Shown: positions 1-6,786, counted from the first letter of the stretch. The stretch: DNA of 6,786 nt from Candidatus Vampirococcus lugosii (GCF_018420025.1 NZ_JAEDAM010000056.1:1-6786); one strand, 5' to 3'. Made by a program: numbers and translations. Notes: generated by a model not told the origin, from the letters alone.

Positions 1-360
1 ATTAGATTTATTAGAATCATCTAAATTAGAATTAGTTTTATTAGAATCATCTAAATTAGAATTAGTTTTATTAGAATCATCTAAATTAGAATTAGTTTTA
101 TTAGAATCATCTAAATTAGAATCAGTTTTATTAGAATCATCTAAATTATTATTAGTTTTATTAGAATTATCTAAATTAGAATTAGTTTTATTAGAATCAT
201 CTAAATTAGAATCAGTTTTATTAGAATCATCTAAATTAGAATTAGTTTTATTAGAATCATCTAAATTAGAATTAGTTTTATTAGAATCATCTAAATTAGA
301 ATTAGTTTTATTAGAATCATCTAAATCAGAATTAGTTTTATTAGAATCATCTAAATTATT
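1..360. repeat. Tandem direct repeat, 30-bp unit x 12 copies (array may continue beyond the left edge); consensus attagttttattagaatcatctaaattaga
   Basis: Read directly: units start at 1, 31, 61 ... 331. Six copies are identical to the consensus; the others differ by 1-3 nt (units at 1, 121, 151, 211, 301, 331). There are no spacers between units. The period is a multiple of 3 and in frame with the minus-strand CDS. Confidence 0.95.
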
Positions 361-621
361 ATTAGATTCAGTTTTATCTTTTTTCAAAAATCAATTGATT
401 ATAGATTTAGTTTTATTTACTCATTTGTTTCATTCTTTTTTAAGATCATTTGTTATCTTTTCAAGATGTTCTTTTCTTTCTTGTGGCATATTATCATATT
501 TTTTTTCTACATAAGATATTAATGGCTTAAATAATCATTTTACAAATAATGGCATATCTTTTACTGTTTGTTTAAGATCATTTATGATTCTTTCTTTGTG
601 GCTTTTTTCTTCATTATTCAT
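1..621 (-). CDS. Hypothetical repeat protein, start in window and 3' end off the left edge: 87-aa K/E-rich N-terminal domain followed by at least 12 tandem 10-aa repeats (consensus SNLDDSNKTN)
   Basis: ATG at 621-619 with an in-frame TAA two codons upstream. The frame is open to position 1 when TGA is sense (4 in-frame TGA). Translation: MNNEEKSHKERIINDLKQTVKDMPLFVKGLFKPLISYVEKKYDNMPQERKEHLEKITNDLKKEGNKGVNKTKSIINGFLKKDKTESNNNLDDSNKTN... The N/K/D/E/I-rich composition matches the other genes in the window. No signal peptide or TM segment is visible. Caveat: plus-strand frame 2 is also open across the repeat (LDLLESSKLE..., stop at 512-514), but it gives an L/S/F-rich, antisense-looking product. 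Confidence 0.65.
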
Positions 622-820
622 TTTTTATAATTAATATTATTTATATATATAAATATATAATTATATTATTTTATTTTTAAATTTCAAGTTGTTTCAATTA
701 TTTTTTATAAACAAATATTAAATTATTGTTTTTCTTTGTCTATAATTAAATATATTTATTATTTTTTAATAATTTTAAGTTATTTTTTTGTATATTATGA
801 TACTGACAATATTTTTTTAT

Positions 821-848
821 TTGATTTTAATATTTTTTTATTTATAAT
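821..848 (+). promoter_or_regulatory. Candidate sigma70-like promoter for the 877-3306 gene (TTGATT -16 nt- TATAAT)
   Basis: ttgatt at 821-826 and tataat at 843-848, with a 16-nt spacer, about 29 nt upstream of the ATG at 877. In DNA this AT-rich such matches arise by chance, so this is weak support. Confidence 0.3.
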
Positions 849-876
849 TTTGAAATTTAAAATTAAGTAAAATGTA

Positions 877-3306
877 ATGAATTATAAAATATTATATATT
901 TCAACTTGAATTATTTTATTATTAACTTTAGTAGTTTTTTCATTTATTTATTTTTTTCAAGATAATCAGAAAGAACAAATATTAACGGATGTAAATATAC
1001 AAAAAGATATTGATTTAAATTTAGATTTACCATTTTTAAATTCAAATTATGAATTTAGTATAAAAAATTTATGAATATATTCAGAATCAAATTCTGAAAA
1101 ACAAAGAATTAAATTAGATAATTTTTATTATAAAATTAATAATTTTTGAGATAAATATGAAAATGATTTAATAAGTGATGTAGATATAATAAATAATGAA
1201 AAAAATATGTTTTTAAAAATATGAAAAAATTGATTTAATAAAGATTTTTTAAATTTTTTAAATTTTTTTAATTTAGATATATTAGAAAATATAGATAATA
1301 ATTCATATCTTTTGATACAAGAAATTAATAATATGGATTTTCAATATTTTGAAATAGATGATAATAAAAATAAATATTCTTACAATATAGATTGATTGTT
1401 TGATTTTGAAATATATTTTGATAATTGAAAAATTAAAGAGTTTAATTTTGATATTCCTATTATTAAATCATTTTTTAAAGAAAATAAAATATATTTTGAA
1501 TGAGAATTTGATAAAAAATGATTTTTTAAAAAAATTGATTCTAAATTACATTTTAATGAAGATTTAATGATAGATATGAAATTTGAAAATAATAAATTAA
1601 ATGCTATATTAAACATAGATTTAGCAGAAATAAATTTTGATCTTGATTTTATAAATTGAAAAATTAATTGAACTTGAAATATTATTCAAAATGATGAAGA
1701 AGTTTGAAAAGTAGAATTAAAATGAGAATATGAATGACTTGATTATTTTAATATATTAGGTGATTTAATAAGTTATGATGATACAGATGAACAAATTAAT
1801 ATAAAAATAAATTATGAAAATAATTTTTTGGATATAGAAGCTATTTCTGATAGAGATATTTTAAATCTAAAATGAGATTTAAATATTGGAAATAATTTTA
1901 ATATTGATATTTCTAGTAAATTATTTAGAAATAATGAACTTTTGGAAGAATATTTTAAATTTAAAGCTAAGAAAGAAAATAGTAATTTTTTGAGTAATTT
2001 TTATATAAAAGAAGAAAAAATTTATGATCTATCTTTGGATATAAAAGATAAATGAGATTGAAATGTAGAATTTAAAGTTCCAGATGAATATATAGAAAGT
2101 GATGAAATAAAATTACCAAAAATAAAAATATCATGAAATAGTAAATTAAAATTATTTTTTAATCTCCTGTTATTAAATTTTGAATTTTTAACAAAAATCT
2201 ACAATAGAGATTATTATATTCCAGATTATGATAAATCAAATCTTGAATTAGTTGATTATATTGAAGATCTTCCAAAAGAAGAAAATGCTATTTATGAATT
2301 AGTTGAATTTTGAAATTATATAGAAGAAAATTCAAAATCATATAGTGATATACAAGATATGTTTGATTATGAAAAATGAGTTGTGCCTTGAGATTTATTC
2401 CGTTCACGAAGTGATTTTTATTGAGATTATGATTTTGATATTGATTATGAAAATTGAGATAAACTTTATTTTGATGAAAATATATGAGAACTTTTATTAA
2501 ATTGATTAGAAAAATATAATGAAGTATTTGAATATTATTATAATAATGAAGAATTTAAACAAAATATAATTAAATTAAATAATATAATAAATAAATATGA
2601 ATATTTTCAACTTGATAAATCTTATACATATGATGATTATAATGATTTAATGCCAATACTATCATCACGGAGCTTTACTAGAAATATATTATGAGTTGCA
2701 ATATATGCTTGTAGTATATGAGATTATTGAACTTGTTTAAGATATATAGATTTAAATCAAAATATATGAAATTTTCTTTATAACTGACATTCTCCTAGTC
2801 CAGTAATATTAACTTGATCAACTATAAGCGAGGATACAATAAGAGGAATGTATTTAATTGTAAAAAGTTTTGAATTACCAGATTCTGTTTTAAATAATTT
2901 TAAAAAAATTATTAAAAAATATTATACTAAAAATAATATTAGTTTAAAAAATTTTATTAGATATAAATTTATTTTATTTAAAAATAGTTTAGATAAAATA
3001 TATGATGATATCTCTCTTTCATCTGAAGAAGAAAAGTTTTTATTATCAAAAGACTTTAATGAAGAAGAAACTTTAAGTGTATATTGATATTATTTATCAA
3101 AACATATTGATTGATATCATGATGAAGCAGTAGCTTTTTTAGAAGAGTATAAAAAAGATAAATTTAGAAAAAACTATATTTGAAGATATATGATTGATAA
3201 TTTTTCAACAACTTTAATATTACCTAATTATCCTACAATAGATGAAGAATTAAAAGATTTTAAAAATAAACTTATAGGAATAATTGATAATAAATTAAAG
3301 AAATAA
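877..3306 (+). CDS. Hypothetical 809-aa protein with an N-terminal transmembrane signal-anchor; large N/D/K/E/F/Y-rich, probably extracytoplasmic, domain; no recognisable family
   Basis: ATG at 877, TAA at 3304-3306. I read frame 1 codon by codon and found no TAA or TAG, with 35 in-frame TGA by hand count. The N-terminus MNYKILYISTGIILLLTLVVFSFIYFFQDNQ contains one hydrophobic helix. ORF-track entry 2848-3087 is an in-frame fragment of this gene. Confidence 0.85.
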
Positions 3307-3350
3307 TTTTATTTATATTAAATTATATAATAAAATATAACTTTTTATTC

Positions 3351-3379
3351 TTGACATTATTTTAATAATTATTATATAT
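3351..3379 (+). promoter_or_regulatory. Candidate sigma70-like promoter for the 3413-4804 / 4812-5906 gene pair (consensus TTGACA -35)
   Basis: ttgaca at 3351-3356, followed 16-17 nt later by tatata/atatat (3373-3379), about 35 nt upstream of the ATG at 3413. The -35 is an exact consensus, but the -10 lies in a (TA)n-like stretch and is ambiguous. Confidence 0.35.
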
Positions 3380-3412
3380 TATATATTTATATAATAATAT
3401 ATTTAATTTTTT

Positions 3413-4804
3413 ATGAAAGAATTTAATAATGTTTCTGATTGAATTCCTACAATTCCTTTTGTAGCAAATTACAATGTAGATAGTGAATCATTCAATAATT
3501 TCCAAGGTAAAGCTATGCAAGAATTAATATCTGATATTTCTTGATATGTTCAGAGAAGTATTTGATTATGAGTTATTCCTCAAGATTCTATTCATTTGGT
3601 AGCACATAATGTATGACAAGAATATTTATCTTATATATCTGATTTAAAATGAAAAAAATTAGATAAAGAACAAATAATTAAAATTACTGATATTAAATCA
3701 ACTTGTGATAAAATAATTTCACAAATAAATGAAGAAAAATATTTTAATTTAAACTTTATATCTACTGGTATAGCTCAAGATCTTATGTCTAATTTTTTAA
3801 ATTCTTCAGAAGATTTTTATCTTGAAAATCTTTGATTTGAAGACAAAATAGATAAAGCAAATTCAAAAGTATTTCTTAGAGAAAATTTTTCAGATTATAT
3901 GGTAAATTGACATATATTAGATACTAATAAACAAGATTGGATAGATGATTTGTATGATTATTTTGATTTTTATCAAAAAAAATGATTAAATTTAATTATA
4001 AGACTTGATAGATCAGTTTCTTGACTTTGATACAAAAAAATTTGTACATATAAAGATATAGAAGAACTTATATTATTATTTAATATAAATAAACATACAT
4101 TGACTGATAAGTTTTTGTTGGAAATATGTTTTGATTCTGATTCAATAATTTCTAGTCCAAGTTGTTTGGCTTATATAAATAAAAATAATGATGTTGATAC
4201 TTTTTCTTGTACTAATCAATTATTAAATTGAGCTACACATGAATGAAATGTTGTTATAAAAGATGATGAATATTTTGAAAATCTTCAAAATTTAATGAAA
4301 AAATTAACTAATAATATTTGATCTGAAATAAATGATAAATTATGAGTTATCTCATATTATTGAATTGATTTTATGCTTATAGATATTTCTTATTATGAAA
4401 ATATATATGATATAGTATGAAAAAATGTTGAAATTGTAAATGTTTATGGTAAAGATTATGCATTAATTGTTTGTGAGGTAAATCGAAGAATGACTTGAGC
4501 ATATTCATCAGCAATGATTAATAATCTTTATTTTAAAGATAAAGATAAAAGAATTGCAAATTATAATACTTTTGAGTACAATATTAATTCAAATGATAAT
4601 TTTGAACATATTCAAAATAAAATAATAATGAATTTAAAAAAAGAATGAATTTTATTTGATCCAACAAAAGATTCTTTTATGTTTGGAGTTTATCCTTTTA
4701 GTATACAAAAATGAAAAATACAAGTTGTAATAATTTCAAATAATTCTGAACATGAAAATGAAATTATAAAAGAATTAGAATCTATACTTTATAATTTAAA
4801 TTAA
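3413..4804 (+). CDS. Hypothetical 463-aa cytoplasmic-looking protein, no recognisable family
   Basis: ATG at 3413 with an in-frame TAA at 3404-3406 upstream; TAA at 4802-4804. Frame 2 read codon by codon has no TAA or TAG and about 20 in-frame TGA. Begins MKEFNNVSDGIPTIPFVANYNVDSESFNNFQGKAMQELISDISGYVQRSIGLGVIPQDSIHLVAHNVGQEY... and ends ...FGVYPFSIQKGKIQVVIISNNSEHENEIIKELESILYNLN. No signal peptide, P-loop or HExxH motif. Confidence 0.85.
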
Positions 4805-4811
4805 TATTAAA

Positions 4812-5906
4812 ATGACTTTTGTACTTGATGATATAATTAATACTACTCAAGATATGATAAAAATTCCTTCAATTTCTGATGATTTAATAAATTTGGAAAA
4901 AAATATAGATTATATTTATAATTTCTTTGTAGATACTAATTTGATTATTGAAAAAAAGTATTATAATAATAAACCAAATATTTTGGTAAAGAATTTTGAA
5001 TGAAAAAAGGCAGATATAGTATTAAACGGTCATATTGATGTAGTTGCTGGATCTGATGATAAACAATTTGAGCCATATATAAAATGAAATAAATTATATT
5101 GAAGATGATCTATAGATATGAAATGATGAATTTCTATAATTATGTATATAATGAAATATTTGGATAGTATATCTTATAAAGACAAAAAAATATCTTTAAT
5201 AATAACAAGTGATGAAGAAATAGGTTGATTTGATTGTGCTTACAATATTGCTAAAGATTGATATATATGAGATATTATTTTGATACCAGACTGATGATCA
5301 AGTACAAGAATTGTAAATACTCAAAAATGACTTAATTTGTTTGAAGTAGTTGCACAAGGAAAATCTTGTCATTCAAGTAGACCTTGGCTTGGTGATAATG
5401 CAATAAATAAAATTTTTAATTTATATAAAGATTTAAAGGAAACTTTTGAAAACAAAACAAAAAATAATCGATATTCTACAGTTAATTTAAATAAAATTCA
5501 ATGATGAAAAAGTATTAATGCTATTCCAAATGAATGTATAGCTAGTTTTGATATAAGATTTACTGAAGATTTTGATGATAGTTATGTAAGAGAGACTGTA
5601 AATAAATTAATTATCAATAATTCTTGTACTGTTATCAAATCAATTTTTTGATCTTGTCTTCATACTGATGAAAATGATAAAAATTTACAAAAATTTAAAT
5701 CAATAGCTTCTGATTTATCTTGATGAAAAGAAATAAATTTTGTTAAAGAACATTGATGATCCGATTGAAGATTTTTTGCACAATATTGATCAAAAATAAT
5801 ATTATATAGACCTGATTGAGATAATTTGCATACATTTGATGAATGGATTGATATTAATTCTTTTGAATTAATTTATAATTCGTATTTAAAATTTATACTT
5901 TCTTAA
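4812..5906 (+). CDS. M20-family metallohydrolase (ArgE/DapE/ACY1/CPG2-type peptidase/deacylase), 364 aa
   Basis: ATG at 4812, TAA at 5904-5906, about 22 in-frame TGA. With TGA=Gly the canonical M20 motifs appear in order. These are LNGHIDVV (metal His), KLYGRGSIDMKGG (metal Asp; 5097-5129), ITSDEEIGG (catalytic and metal Glu), and LIPDGG. They continue with QGKSCHSSRPWLGDNAINK, IQGGKSINAIPNECIASFDIRF and EHGGSDGRFF (C-terminal metal His; 5751-5771). ORF-track entry 4812-5003 is only its first 63 codons. Confidence 0.9.
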
Positions 5907-5946
5907 TTTTTATAAAAAAATAAAAATCAATTAAGATTTTTATTTT
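5901..5946 (+). terminator. Possible weak intrinsic terminator overlapping the peptidase stop codon
   Basis: tcttaatt (5901-5908) pairs with aattaaga (5929-5936) across a 20-nt A-rich loop, followed by tttttatttt (5937-5946). The stem is almost all A-T and the loop is large, so support is weak. Confidence 0.3.
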
Positions 5947-5964
5947 AATTAAAATATTTTAAAT

Positions 5965-5995
5965 AAAAAAATGCAAAATTGCATTTTATTTTTTA
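5965..5995. terminator. Bidirectional rho-independent terminator between the convergent peptidase gene (+) and tRNA operon (-)
   Basis: aaaatgca (5968-5975) pairs with tgcatttt (5980-5987) across a 4-nt loop. An A-tract lies upstream (aaataaa) and a T-tract downstream (atttttt), so a U-run follows the hairpin on either strand. The site lies 12 nt beyond the tRNA-Trp 3' end. Confidence 0.55.
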
Positions 5996-6006
5996 CAAAA
6001 AAAATA

Positions 6007-6079
6007 CAGGGGTGACAGGACTTGAACCCGCGACACACGGCTTTGGAGACCATTGCTCTACCAACTGAGCTACACCCCT
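6007..6079 (-). tRNA. tRNA-Trp (anticodon CCA), 73 nt, 3' CCA not encoded
   Basis: Reverse complement: AGGGGTG TA GCTC AGTTGGTA GAGC A ATGGT CTCCAAA GCCGT GTGTC GCGGG TTCAAGT CCTGT CACCCCT G. It has a 7-bp acceptor stem, a 4-bp D stem, GG in the D loop and a TTCAAGT T-loop. The anticodon loop CU-CCA-AA has U33 and A37. The sequence after discriminator G is TA, not CCA. Confidence 0.9.
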
Positions 6080-6082
6080 ATA

Positions 6083-6159
6083 TGGTGGGTTAGGAGGGAC
6101 TTGAACCCTCGACCTTGGGCTTAAGAGGCCCCTGCTCTAGCCAACTGAGCTACTAACCC
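6083..6159 (-). tRNA. tRNA-Lys (anticodon CUU), 74 nt plus encoded 3' CCA
   Basis: Reverse complement: GGGTTAG TA GCTC AGTTGGCTA GAGC A GGGGC CTCTTAA GCCCA AGGTC GAGGG TTCAAGT CCCTC CTAACCC A CCA. The acceptor, D and T stems are perfect. The anticodon stem has one G-A mismatch at its top (27:43). The anticodon loop is CU-CUU-AA. A 3-nt spacer separates it from the downstream tRNA-Trp. Confidence 0.9.
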
Positions 6160-6167
6160 AAATATAG

Positions 6168-6196
6168 TATATATTATATATACTGATTTATAACAA
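6168..6196 (-). promoter_or_regulatory. Candidate promoter for the tRNA-Lys/tRNA-Trp operon (TTGTTA -17 nt- TATATA on the minus strand)
   Basis: On the minus strand, ttgtta (6196-6191), a 17-nt spacer, then tatata (6173-6168), ending 8 nt before the mature tRNA-Lys 5' end. Alternative registers exist (ttgaat further upstream). The AT-rich context makes this weak. Confidence 0.25.
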
Positions 6197-6211
6197 AAAT
6201 TCAAGTATTTT

Positions 6212-6255
6212 TTAATAAATTTTCCTCTCTATGTAAAGAGAGGAAAATTTATTAA
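6212..6255 (-). terminator. Perfect 19-bp-stem / 6-nt-loop hairpin overlapping the stop codon of the 6252-6410 ORF; probable terminator or insulator between that ORF and the tRNA operon
   Basis: ttaataaattttcctctct (6212-6230), loop atgtaa, then agagaggaaaatttattaa (6237-6255); every position pairs. No clean U-run follows on either strand, so the terminator role is inferred from position only. The structure itself is certain. Confidence 0.45.
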
Positions 6256-6410
6256 CTATTATCTTTTACAAATTTTGAATTAATACTTGATTCTTGAAAA
6301 TATTTTCTTTGATAAAATTCTGATTTTTTTCATATATTAAATTGACTTACTGGTCTATGATATCACATTACTCTAGTTACAATTTGACATTTTGTTCTTT
6401 TCTCTTCCAT
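6252..6410 (-). CDS. 52-aa ORF matching only the C-terminal glycyl-radical segment of an anaerobic (class III) ribonucleotide reductase, NrdD-like; either an IS-truncated gene remnant or a stand-alone mini-protein
   Basis: ATG 6410-6408, TAA 6254-6252. Translation: MEEKRTKCQIVTRVMGYHRPVSQFNIGKKSEFYQRKYFQESSINSKFVKDNS. The stretch TRVMGY-x-RPVS-x-(F/W)N-x-GKK-x-EF-x-x-RK resembles, from memory, the NrdD C-terminus around the radical glycine (glycyl-radical fingerprint R-V-x-G-Y). That Gly (6365-6363) and the Gly of NIGKK are both TGA codons. An in-frame TAA lies 5 codons upstream of the ATG. The next roughly 140 nt upstream have stops in all frames, so no NrdD body or Zn-ribbon (CxxC...CxxC) precedes it. 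Confidence 0.55.
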
Positions 6411-6786
6411 TTCTCTATTATTTTAATAATATATAAAAATATAAGGCTAAAATATAATACATCTTGATTATATAAATACTTATATATTAGAAATATAATA
6501 AAATTTTTATTTAAATCAAGAGAAAAATGTTAACATATTATTAATCTTCTGCACCTAAATTAAAGAAAAAAGTGAATTTTGTTGATTCTGTAGCTGTTTT
6601 CTTTGATTTCTATTTCGGAAAAATTTTCAATTATGTAATATATATTCAACTACTTCTAACCAGGCATACATATAATAATTATTTAGTCTTTCAACTTCAC
6701 TTCTTAAATGTATTTTCTCTAAATTATATTCTTGTTTTAAATATTTATATGTTTCTTCTATTAACCATCTATAACTATATACTTTT
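6411..6786 (-). mobile_element. Partial insertion sequence (IS4/IS5-like); the inner terminus lies somewhere in 6411-6554 and the other end is off-window
   Basis: Inferred from the transposase 3' end plus about 140 nt of non-coding sequence before the next ORF. The terminal inverted repeat cannot be defined because the other IS end is not in the window, so the left coordinate is only a bound. Confidence 0.45.
6555..6786 (-). CDS. DDE transposase, C-terminal 76 aa (IS4/IS5-type, DDE_Tnp_1-like); 5' part off the right edge
   Basis: The minus-strand frame starting at 6785 gives KVYSYRWLIEETYKYLKQEYNLEKIHLRSEVERLNNYYMYAWLEVVEYILHNGKFFRNRNQRKQLQNQQNSLFSLI, ending in TAG at 6557-6555. It contains an exact Y-x2-R-x3-E-x6-K signature (YSYRWLIEETYKYLK). 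This is the conserved block carrying the third catalytic acidic residue of IS4-family transposases. One in-frame TGA (HNGKFF). Confidence 0.75.

Follow-up and report, generated by a model that had tools for sequence, protein, structure and literature searches.

Reading of UGA as glycine is known from the SR1 and Gracilibacteria lineages (Campbell et al. 2013 and Rinke et al. 2013, as cited in PMC8629427) and corresponds to translation table 25 of the National Center for Biotechnology Information (NCBI). For Absconditabacteria, a reassignment of CGA and CGG to tryptophan besides that of UGA to glycine was reported (Shulgina and Eddy, eLife 2021, PMC8629427); in these genomes CGA and CGG are little used, arginine is mainly encoded by AGA and the content of guanine plus cytosine (GC) is 0.26–0.38, the range quoted for the Absconditabacteria and Gracilibacteria phyla being 0.21–0.53 (PMC8629427). 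Candidatus Absconditicoccus praedator M39-6 is a cultivated predatory SR1 epibiont of Halorhodospira (PMC9698310). Here, a stretch of 6786 bp with 18.8% GC from Candidatus Vampirococcus lugosii (NZ_JAEDAM010000056.1, positions 1–6786; called the window in the following) was analysed for the genetic code used by its three co-oriented genes g1, g2 and g3.

With table 25 the window shares UGA as glycine, UAA and UAG as stops, UGG as tryptophan and an AT-rich lineage within the Candidate Phyla Radiation (CPR); it differs in that UGA is the dominant, not merely an additional, glycine codon (86%). Its likeness to the Absconditabacteria code lies in CGA codons on conserved tryptophan positions, in AGA as main arginine codon and in the rarity of CGA and CGG, and with CGA as frequent as UGG it resembles the "advanced stage" genome GCA_002791215.1 (PMC8629427); its GC content, however, is far lower than the 0.26–0.38 of that clade, and a tryptophan meaning of CGG has no support from its single CGG codon. 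Code 4 of Mycoplasma and Spiroplasma likewise makes UGA a sense codon in AT-rich bacteria with small genomes and is assigned here by automatic pipelines, but UGA is tryptophan there and reads as glycine here, and the tryptophan transfer RNA (tRNA) of the window carries the anticodon CCA, not UCA. We put at about 0.9 the probability that the window comes from the chromosome of an uncultured, extremely AT-rich member of the Absconditabacteria (SR1, CPR) with a code in which UGA is glycine and CGA very probably tryptophan.

Open reading frames and in-frame TGA codons

With the standard stops, the longest open reading frame (ORF) of the three-gene region was 101 codons. Restricting the stops to TAA and TAG opened three ORFs in the same orientation, with 809, 463 and 364 codons and with ATG starts at 877, 3413 and 4812:

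877–3306, plus strand: g1, 809 codons, with an N-terminal membrane helix; 35 TGA, no TGG, 4 GGN, 1 CGA, 1 CGG and 1 CGT; ends in TAA.
3413–4804, plus strand: g2, 463 codons, ATP-grasp-like ligase; 20 TGA, 1 TGG, 4 GGN and 1 CGA; ends in TAA.
4812–5906, plus strand: g3, 364 codons, M20 metallopeptidase, putatively of DapE/ArgE type; 22 TGA, 2 TGG, 5 GGN and 1 CGA; ends in TAA.

The first-pass annotation, made from the sequence by eye, had described these genes as open only if TGA is sense; ORF and codon counts bore this out, with exactly 35, 20 and 22 in-frame TGA (77 in total), no in-frame TAA or TAG and a terminal TAA in each gene. GGN codons amounted to 13 and TGG codons to 3. The longest ORF free of TAA and TAG in the window spanned 811 codons, whereas 300 shuffled sequences gave 88 codons on average and 139 at most; the three long ORFs are therefore not due to chance. 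The other frames of g1–g3 contained 24–77 TAA each. TGA is a sense codon in the window. Selenocysteine insertion, readthrough and pseudogenes were considered as causes of the 77 TGA codons that lie in frame on conserved glycines, and were rejected.

Reading of TGA as glycine

The protein of g3 was scored against the Pfam profiles PF01546 (Peptidase_M20) and PF07687 (M20_dimer) with TGA translated as G, masked as X or translated as W. The scores were 80.9 + 70.4 bits for G, 51.3 + 59.3 for X and 38.1 + 54.8 for W (totals of 151, 111 and 93 bits); as g3 scored lower with W than when masked, tryptophan is worse than no information at these sites. The same protein was aligned to 119 database homologues, of which the 84 with normal tryptophan content were kept as reliably translated, because many of the database relatives are mis-translated with code 4. 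Summed over 21 TGA columns of this alignment, the log2-odds were +54.9 bits for Gly, −13.8 for Ala and −81.7 for Trp, the latter being the second worst of the 20 amino acids. In 16 of these columns Gly was more frequent than any other residue; the proportion of Trp was 0–1% throughout. The profile check proposed in the first-pass annotation thus gave the order G, X, W. Two motifs of the family contain TGA codons:

5097–5129, plus strand: Y-G-R-G-S-I-D-M-K-G-G, M20 metal-site motif, with its four glycines encoded by TGA at 5100, 5106, 5124 and 5127.
5751–5771, plus strand: H-G-G-S-D-G-R motif, with TGA at 5754, 5757 and 5766.

Gly accounted for 96%, 100%, 44% and 39% of the four columns of the first motif, and for 76%, 20% and 25% of the three columns of the second, where the remainder was Ala, Thr or Ser; Trp was at 0% in all seven.

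For a comparison at codon level, g2 and g3 were set against their counterparts in A. praedator (CP054059.1) and in the ENA contig k141_783641. The TGA codons of the window stood opposite TGA 45 times, opposite GGN 21 times, opposite other codons 18 times and never opposite TGG. In g2, 16 of the 20 TGA were opposite Gly of the A. praedator orthologue, translated with NCBI table 25. Conserved blocks of g1 likewise pair TGA with G in two partial homologues, for example ILgVAIYACSIgDYgTC opposite ILGVAIYSCHIGDYGTC. Outside g1–g3, TGA also occurs in a short ORF on the other strand:

6252–6410, minus strand: NrdD-like ORF, 52 codons, with the C-terminal glycyl-radical motif TRVM-G-YHRPVSQFNI-G-KKSEF, both glycines of which are TGA.

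This ORF matched PF13597 with 29.5 bits when TGA was read as G and with 18.9 bits when read as W, and about 86 of its 88 homologues from viral contigs had GGN at both TGA positions, in agreement with the earlier statement that the radical glycine of RVM-G-Y is encoded by TGA. Its glycine at 6365–6363 on the minus strand and the positions of YGRGSIDMKGG and HGGSDGR were found where they had been reported. The composition of the 809-residue protein of g1 was also reproduced, a Trp reading of TGA giving 4.3% Trp with 0.5% Gly and a Gly reading giving 4.8% Gly, and the estimate that TGA supplies roughly 85% of the glycine codons came out as 77 of 90 (86%) across the three genes. The Pfam scores, the columns of 84 homologues, the codon comparison with two genomes and the approximately 88 homologues that the NrdD-like ORF has in phages together support the view, already taken in the first-pass annotation, that TGA is read as glycine and is neither stop nor tryptophan.

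TGG, transfer RNAs and stop codons

The following codons, and the only two tRNA genes found in the window, bear on tryptophan and on decoding:

5385–5387, plus strand: TGG (in RPW), at a conserved Trp position of g3.
3938–3940 and 5844–5846, plus strand: the remaining in-frame TGG codons.
6006–6080, minus strand: tRNA-Trp with anticodon CCA, found by ARAGORN and scoring 63.3 bits with Rfam RF00005; A1:U72, discriminator G73.
6083–6159, minus strand: tRNA-Lys with anticodon CUU, found by ARAGORN and Rfam.

Trp made up 76% and 37% of the two TGG columns of g3 among the 84 homologues. In the relatives, TGG was opposite TGG in five of six cases and never opposite TGA; judged by these alignments, TGG is tryptophan. 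The Trp-like sites RPW, DEW, QDW, YRW and AWL, named in the first-pass annotation as places where TGG is still used, were all located, and the anticodon CCA of the local tRNA-Trp was confirmed by ARAGORN. In the proposed code, UGA would be read by a tRNA-Gly with anticodon UCA in a cell devoid of release factor 2, this tRNA and the loss of the factor both being presumed, while UAA and apparently also UAG still act as stops and UGG still specifies tryptophan.

In one of the more distant relatives, with 34% GC (locus L087), a tRNA with anticodon CCG lies at 19405–19477 and carries A1:U72 and G73, identity elements of the Trp type. This agrees with the published reassignment (PMC8629427) and with CGG being tryptophan in the lineage of that relative, and says nothing direct about the organism of the window.

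Probable reading of CGA as tryptophan

Among the 1639 codons of g1–g3, arginine-family codons were AGA (23), CGA (3), CGG (1) and CGT (1), with no AGG, so that AGA made up 23 of 28. Per 10,000 codons, this corresponds to 18 CGA and 6 CGG, as compared with 18 UGG. The codons concerned are:

5469–5471, plus strand: CGA of g3 (residue 220), proposed Trp.
4484–4486, plus strand: CGA of g2 (in CEVN-CGA-RMTG), proposed Trp.
2407–2409, plus strand: CGA of g1, where its two distant homologues have Y and N.
2668–2670, plus strand: the sole CGG, in g1, opposite K and H in two homologues.

In the column of the g3 CGA, the 84 homologues had W in 52 cases, Y in 13, F in 11 and R in 1, and both relatives used for the codon comparison had TGG there. 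Only 3 of 360 columns of g3 were strongly dominated by Trp, and the window codons at these columns were TGG, TGG and CGA. The CGA of g2 was opposite TGG in A. praedator and opposite CGA in the second relative (locus L004); the A. praedator orthologue of g2 has 2 Trp in 466 residues, and these are opposite the TGG and the CGA (4484–4486) of the window gene. Every strongly conserved Trp position of g2 and g3 is thus TGG or CGA in the window. For the only CGA of g3 to coincide with any of the 5 Trp-majority columns in 360, and the only CGA of g2 with either of 2 Trp in 466, the calculated chance was approximately 6 × 10−5. On this comparative basis, CGA probably specifies tryptophan in the organism of the window, whereas for CGG the single occurrence provides no support for such a meaning. 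The near-absence of UGG would then be explained by CGA also encoding tryptophan. None of the other codons of g3 departed convincingly from its standard meaning, the flagged cases being restricted to 1–4 columns or to exchanges between I and V.

Several observations weigh against the proposed code. The CGA of g1 is opposite Y and N of its two distant homologues, in a weakly conserved stretch, and the sole CGG, opposite K and H of two distant homologues, leans towards Arg. At the g3 CGA, the Pfam profile M20_dimer favours W over R by just +0.7 bits. Three CGA sites in the M3 peptidase of L004 gave a mixed result, the change from R to W being worth +7.2, +1.9 and −0.2 bits. The evidence for CGA as tryptophan comes down to two informative codons, and all inference of the code is comparative. 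Neither a tRNA-Gly(UCA) nor a tRNA(UCG) was found in the 6.8-kb window or in two matching 6.2-kb contigs of the Logan collection, and no tRNA-Gly(UCA) was found in five 21-kb loci of relatives. The 18.8% GC of the window, which lies below the 0.21–0.53 quoted for the two phyla, is a figure from 6.8 kb and not from a genome.

The strongest competing explanation is plain table 25, by which UGA is glycine, CGA and CGG are still arginine and the two CGA on Trp columns are ordinary Trp-to-Arg substitutions. It accounts for TGA in the same way as the favoured code and is at ease with the Y, N, K and H opposite the g1 codons (the CGA among them lying in a variable region), with a profile nearly indifferent between R and W at residue 220 of g3 and with the mixed scores in L004; moreover, neither CGA nor CGG occurs among 4893 codons of A. 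praedator, the closest genome, which therefore gives no direct view of how the reassignment stands close to this lineage. Plain table 25 would, however, have to attribute both CGA on Trp positions to a chance of about 6 × 10−5, it leaves Trp at just 0.18% of residues with TGG as the only Trp codon, and it stands against a reassignment of CGA that has been published for the same clade (PMC8629427); AGA, the normal arginine codon, does fall on Arg columns. We regard it as unlikely. The claim of genetic code 25 in the first-pass annotation therefore stands for UGA as glycine, and table 25 is probably insufficient, CGA being very likely Trp. If CGA is tryptophan, a translation with table 25 would mis-translate 3–4 codons of the window. 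On that reading the accompanying statement that the 809-residue protein has no Trp would be wrong, since the protein would have one Trp at its CGA and two if its CGG were tryptophan as well.

Lineage and gene order

Assignment to a lineage was based on protein similarity and synteny. The closest named match was A. praedator, with 46% identity for g3 and 43% for g2; the other best matches were proteins from metagenomes, from a member of the Gracilibacteria and from one of the Absconditabacterales. The adjacency of g2 and g3 is kept in A. praedator (L003, 10001–12524) and in the second relative (L004, 10001–12510), in both cases among ribosomal and transcription genes. From this synteny with the A. 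praedator chromosome it follows that the window is chromosomal DNA of a relative of the Absconditabacteria, and the earlier placement in an Absconditabacteria or Gracilibacteria lineage is borne out by the best matches and by the order of g2 and g3. A. praedator resembles the window in having orthologues of both genes next to each other in the same order and in using TGA as major glycine codon (66% in a 21-kb locus). It differs from it in GC content (31%), in showing neither CGA nor CGG in the 4893 codons counted and in lacking a homologue of g1 in its syntenic locus, and the identity of approximately 45% points to a different genus or family.

As a further explanation, it was considered whether the contig stems not from a cell but from a phage, or from another mobile element, whose host uses code 25. 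It draws on the right-hand part of the window, where the closest relatives of the NrdD-like ORF (57–69% identity) lie on viral contigs of IMG/VR, several of them themselves recoded with TGA as Gly, and where a transposase of an insertion sequence (IS) and tRNA genes adjoin this ORF. Only the right-hand 0.6 kb is element-like in this manner, however, no phage structural, terminase or integrase gene was found in the window, and g2 and g3 are syntenic with the A. praedator chromosome and with a second genome contig, near ribosomal and transcription genes. An origin from a mobile element is accordingly considered quite improbable, and a chromosomal origin of the window is preferred.

Public annotation of the same DNA

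The top match of each of the three genes was the window's own protein in a code 4 translation from the Logan gene calls. The Logan contigs SRR13241708_193 and SRR13241709_724 (6.2 kb) are identical to the window from 303 or 334 to 6569, and the gene calls on them have W at all 77 TGA positions. Code 4 as such, with UGA as Trp as in Mycoplasma and in these calls on identical DNA, fits a sense TGA in very AT-rich DNA, is picked by automatic annotation and finds some TGA sites of g1 amid aromatic residues, but has next to no chance of being correct, for Trp stands at −81.7 bits in the TGA columns of g3, the Pfam scores with W fall below those of the masked sequence, TGA is never opposite TGG in the relatives whereas TGG pairs with TGG, the tRNA-Trp has the anticodon CCA, and Trp would replace the invariant glycines of GRG and DEEIGG as well as the radical glycines. 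UGA as Trp was thus ruled out by the column analysis of g3. The warning of the first-pass annotation that a code 4 annotation would be wrong applies to the Logan calls, which place W at 77 glycine positions.

A composition of 3–7% Trp and 2–4% Gly was seen in about 20 of the top 120 M20 homologues, P0003, P0007, P0011 and P0028 among them. Such Trp-rich and Gly-poor sequences are code-25 proteins deposited with code-4 translations, and mis-translation of the clade is therefore widespread in public protein collections. Annotation, homology search and structure prediction for the organism of the window need a custom table, since calls with table 25 are probably still wrong at CGA. The runs SRR13241708 and SRR13241709 could serve for assembling an Absconditabacteria genome that is very rich in AT.

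Predicted functions of g1, g2 and g3

For g1, a word-indexed search gave no homologue, nor was one present in the syntenic loci of relatives; an exhaustive search gave P0125 and P0126 only, both matching its C-terminal ~370 residues. For g2, just three relatives were found among 5.8 billion database proteins, and the sequence matches to ATP-grasp proteins were weak. With an AlphaFold model of its orthologue P0122 (low confidence, with a mean predicted local distance difference test score, pLDDT, of 55), the top matches in the PDB were all ATP-grasp, the best with an E value of 1.8 × 10−9, and on this structural prediction g2 is designated an ATP-grasp-like ligase. The protein of g3 exceeded the Pfam cutoffs with 80.9 bits for PF01546 (cutoff 24.6) and 70.4 bits for PF07687 (cutoff 21), which by profile match makes its membership in the M20 family certain; with TIGR01910 it reached 177.1 bits, under the cutoff of 217.6, and it is described as a peptidase of DapE/ArgE type, a putative substrate class. 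The pair of g2 and g3, an ATP-grasp-like ligase with an M20 deacylase, is by analogy reminiscent of ligase/deacylase pairs such as LysX/LysK.

The NrdD-like ORF

The 52-residue product covers profile positions 530–562 of the 562 of PF13597 and aligns with RIVGY...NKGK of the ANMV-1 NrdD-like protein. No NrdD body was found upstream of the ORF, which comprises the last ~33 profile positions only and falls short of a full-length class III ribonucleotide reductase, and a sequence search of the PDB with the 52 residues gave no match. By sequence, the ORF is a fragment-sized relative of NrdD and not an NrdD enzyme. A total of 348 related stretches were present in IMG/VR; among the best 80 of these, nearly all were short stand-alone ORFs, and the IMG/VR relatives match PHROG 4132. 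Of nine tested ORFs that directly follow a short ORF on its downstream side, five (in L113, L124, L126, L151 and L169) were a convergent tyrosine integrase at a distance of 0.15–1.1 kb, and in at least 11 loci the short NrdD-like ORF was placed right at the end of its viral contig. A phage that integrates at the 3′ end of a gene classically carries a replacement 3′ end at its attachment site (attP). The ORF is most likely such an attP-borne copy of the 3′ end of nrdD at the integration site of a phage that would integrate into nrdD. From the stand-alone form and the layout with integrase or contig end it follows that the copy in the window is most likely one junction of an integration into nrdD.

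Two other explanations of the ORF were downgraded. A remnant cut by the IS is at odds with a family whose members, found on hundreds of phage contigs, are short and intact. The family might alternatively be an autonomous GrcA-like "spare part" for class III ribonucleotide reductase damaged by oxygen; this is improbable and ranks behind the attP copy, the ORFs being short and intact in phages and followed by a convergent integrase in five of nine cases. According to a 2026 review, such a spare-part protein has not yet been found for glycyl-radical enzymes other than pyruvate formate-lyase (PMC13450708).

Among the IMG/VR contigs, L089–L094, L102, L104, L106, L107, L110, L111 and L125 have 26–35% GC and almost no standard-code ORF of ≥150 codons, and are 65–100% coding when TGA is sense. 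The invariant glycines of a metallophosphoesterase on L090 (DxH..G, GDxxD-G, G-NHD and G-H) are encoded by TGA, and L110 encodes a portal protein. Judged from these features, the contigs look like phages or elements of Absconditabacteria or Gracilibacteria with TGA as Gly (code 25).

Ends of the window

Both ends of the window carry incomplete genes:

1–621, minus strand: g0, partial, running off the left end, with 4 TGA, no GGN and a C-terminal decapeptide repeat NSNLDDSNKT.
6555–6785, minus strand: 3′ fragment of a DDE transposase (IS) that extends beyond the right end, with the stop TAG and a weak match to PF01609 (E = 9.7 × 10−4).

The decapeptide repeat of g0 is encoded by a tandem repeat at 1–365 with a period of 30 bp, 12.2 copies and 95% matches. 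The transposase has weak similarity to a DDE transposase beside the syntenic locus of A. praedator. Public assemblies break inside the left tandem repeat and the Logan contigs stop at 6569, the latter being consistent with the boundary of a multi-copy IS or repeat; the assemblies probably end there because of the tandem repeat on the left and the IS fragment on the right.

Codon usage and AT pressure

TGA accounted for a share of 0.86 of the glycine codons in the window. For the two closest relatives, with 31% and 28% GC, the share was 0.66 and 0.69, and three more distant relatives with 34–40% GC gave 0.24–0.48; GGC and GGG were unused in the genes of the window. As the share falls with rising GC, the dominance of TGA is graded and linked to GC in the clade, with the window at the extreme end. 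Strong AT mutational pressure has probably turned UGA into the main glycine codon.

The concept itself is not new, UGA as glycine (2013) and CGA and CGG as tryptophan (2021) having been published for the clade; what is added here is the probable reading of CGA as tryptophan in this organism, the finding that the public gene calls for it are in error, and its extreme pattern of codon usage. That the organism represents the most extreme code state yet seen in Absconditabacteria, with reassigned codons nearly displacing the canonical ones, is conceivable and is put forward only tentatively. If this were true of the whole genome, GGN and UGG would be heading to disuse, and the organism would be a natural case in which AT pressure has let reassigned codons outgrow the original ones. 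The contig itself extends the known GC range of the clade downward and shows how far usage can be driven towards reassigned codons by AT pressure, a point that bears on codon-capture models.

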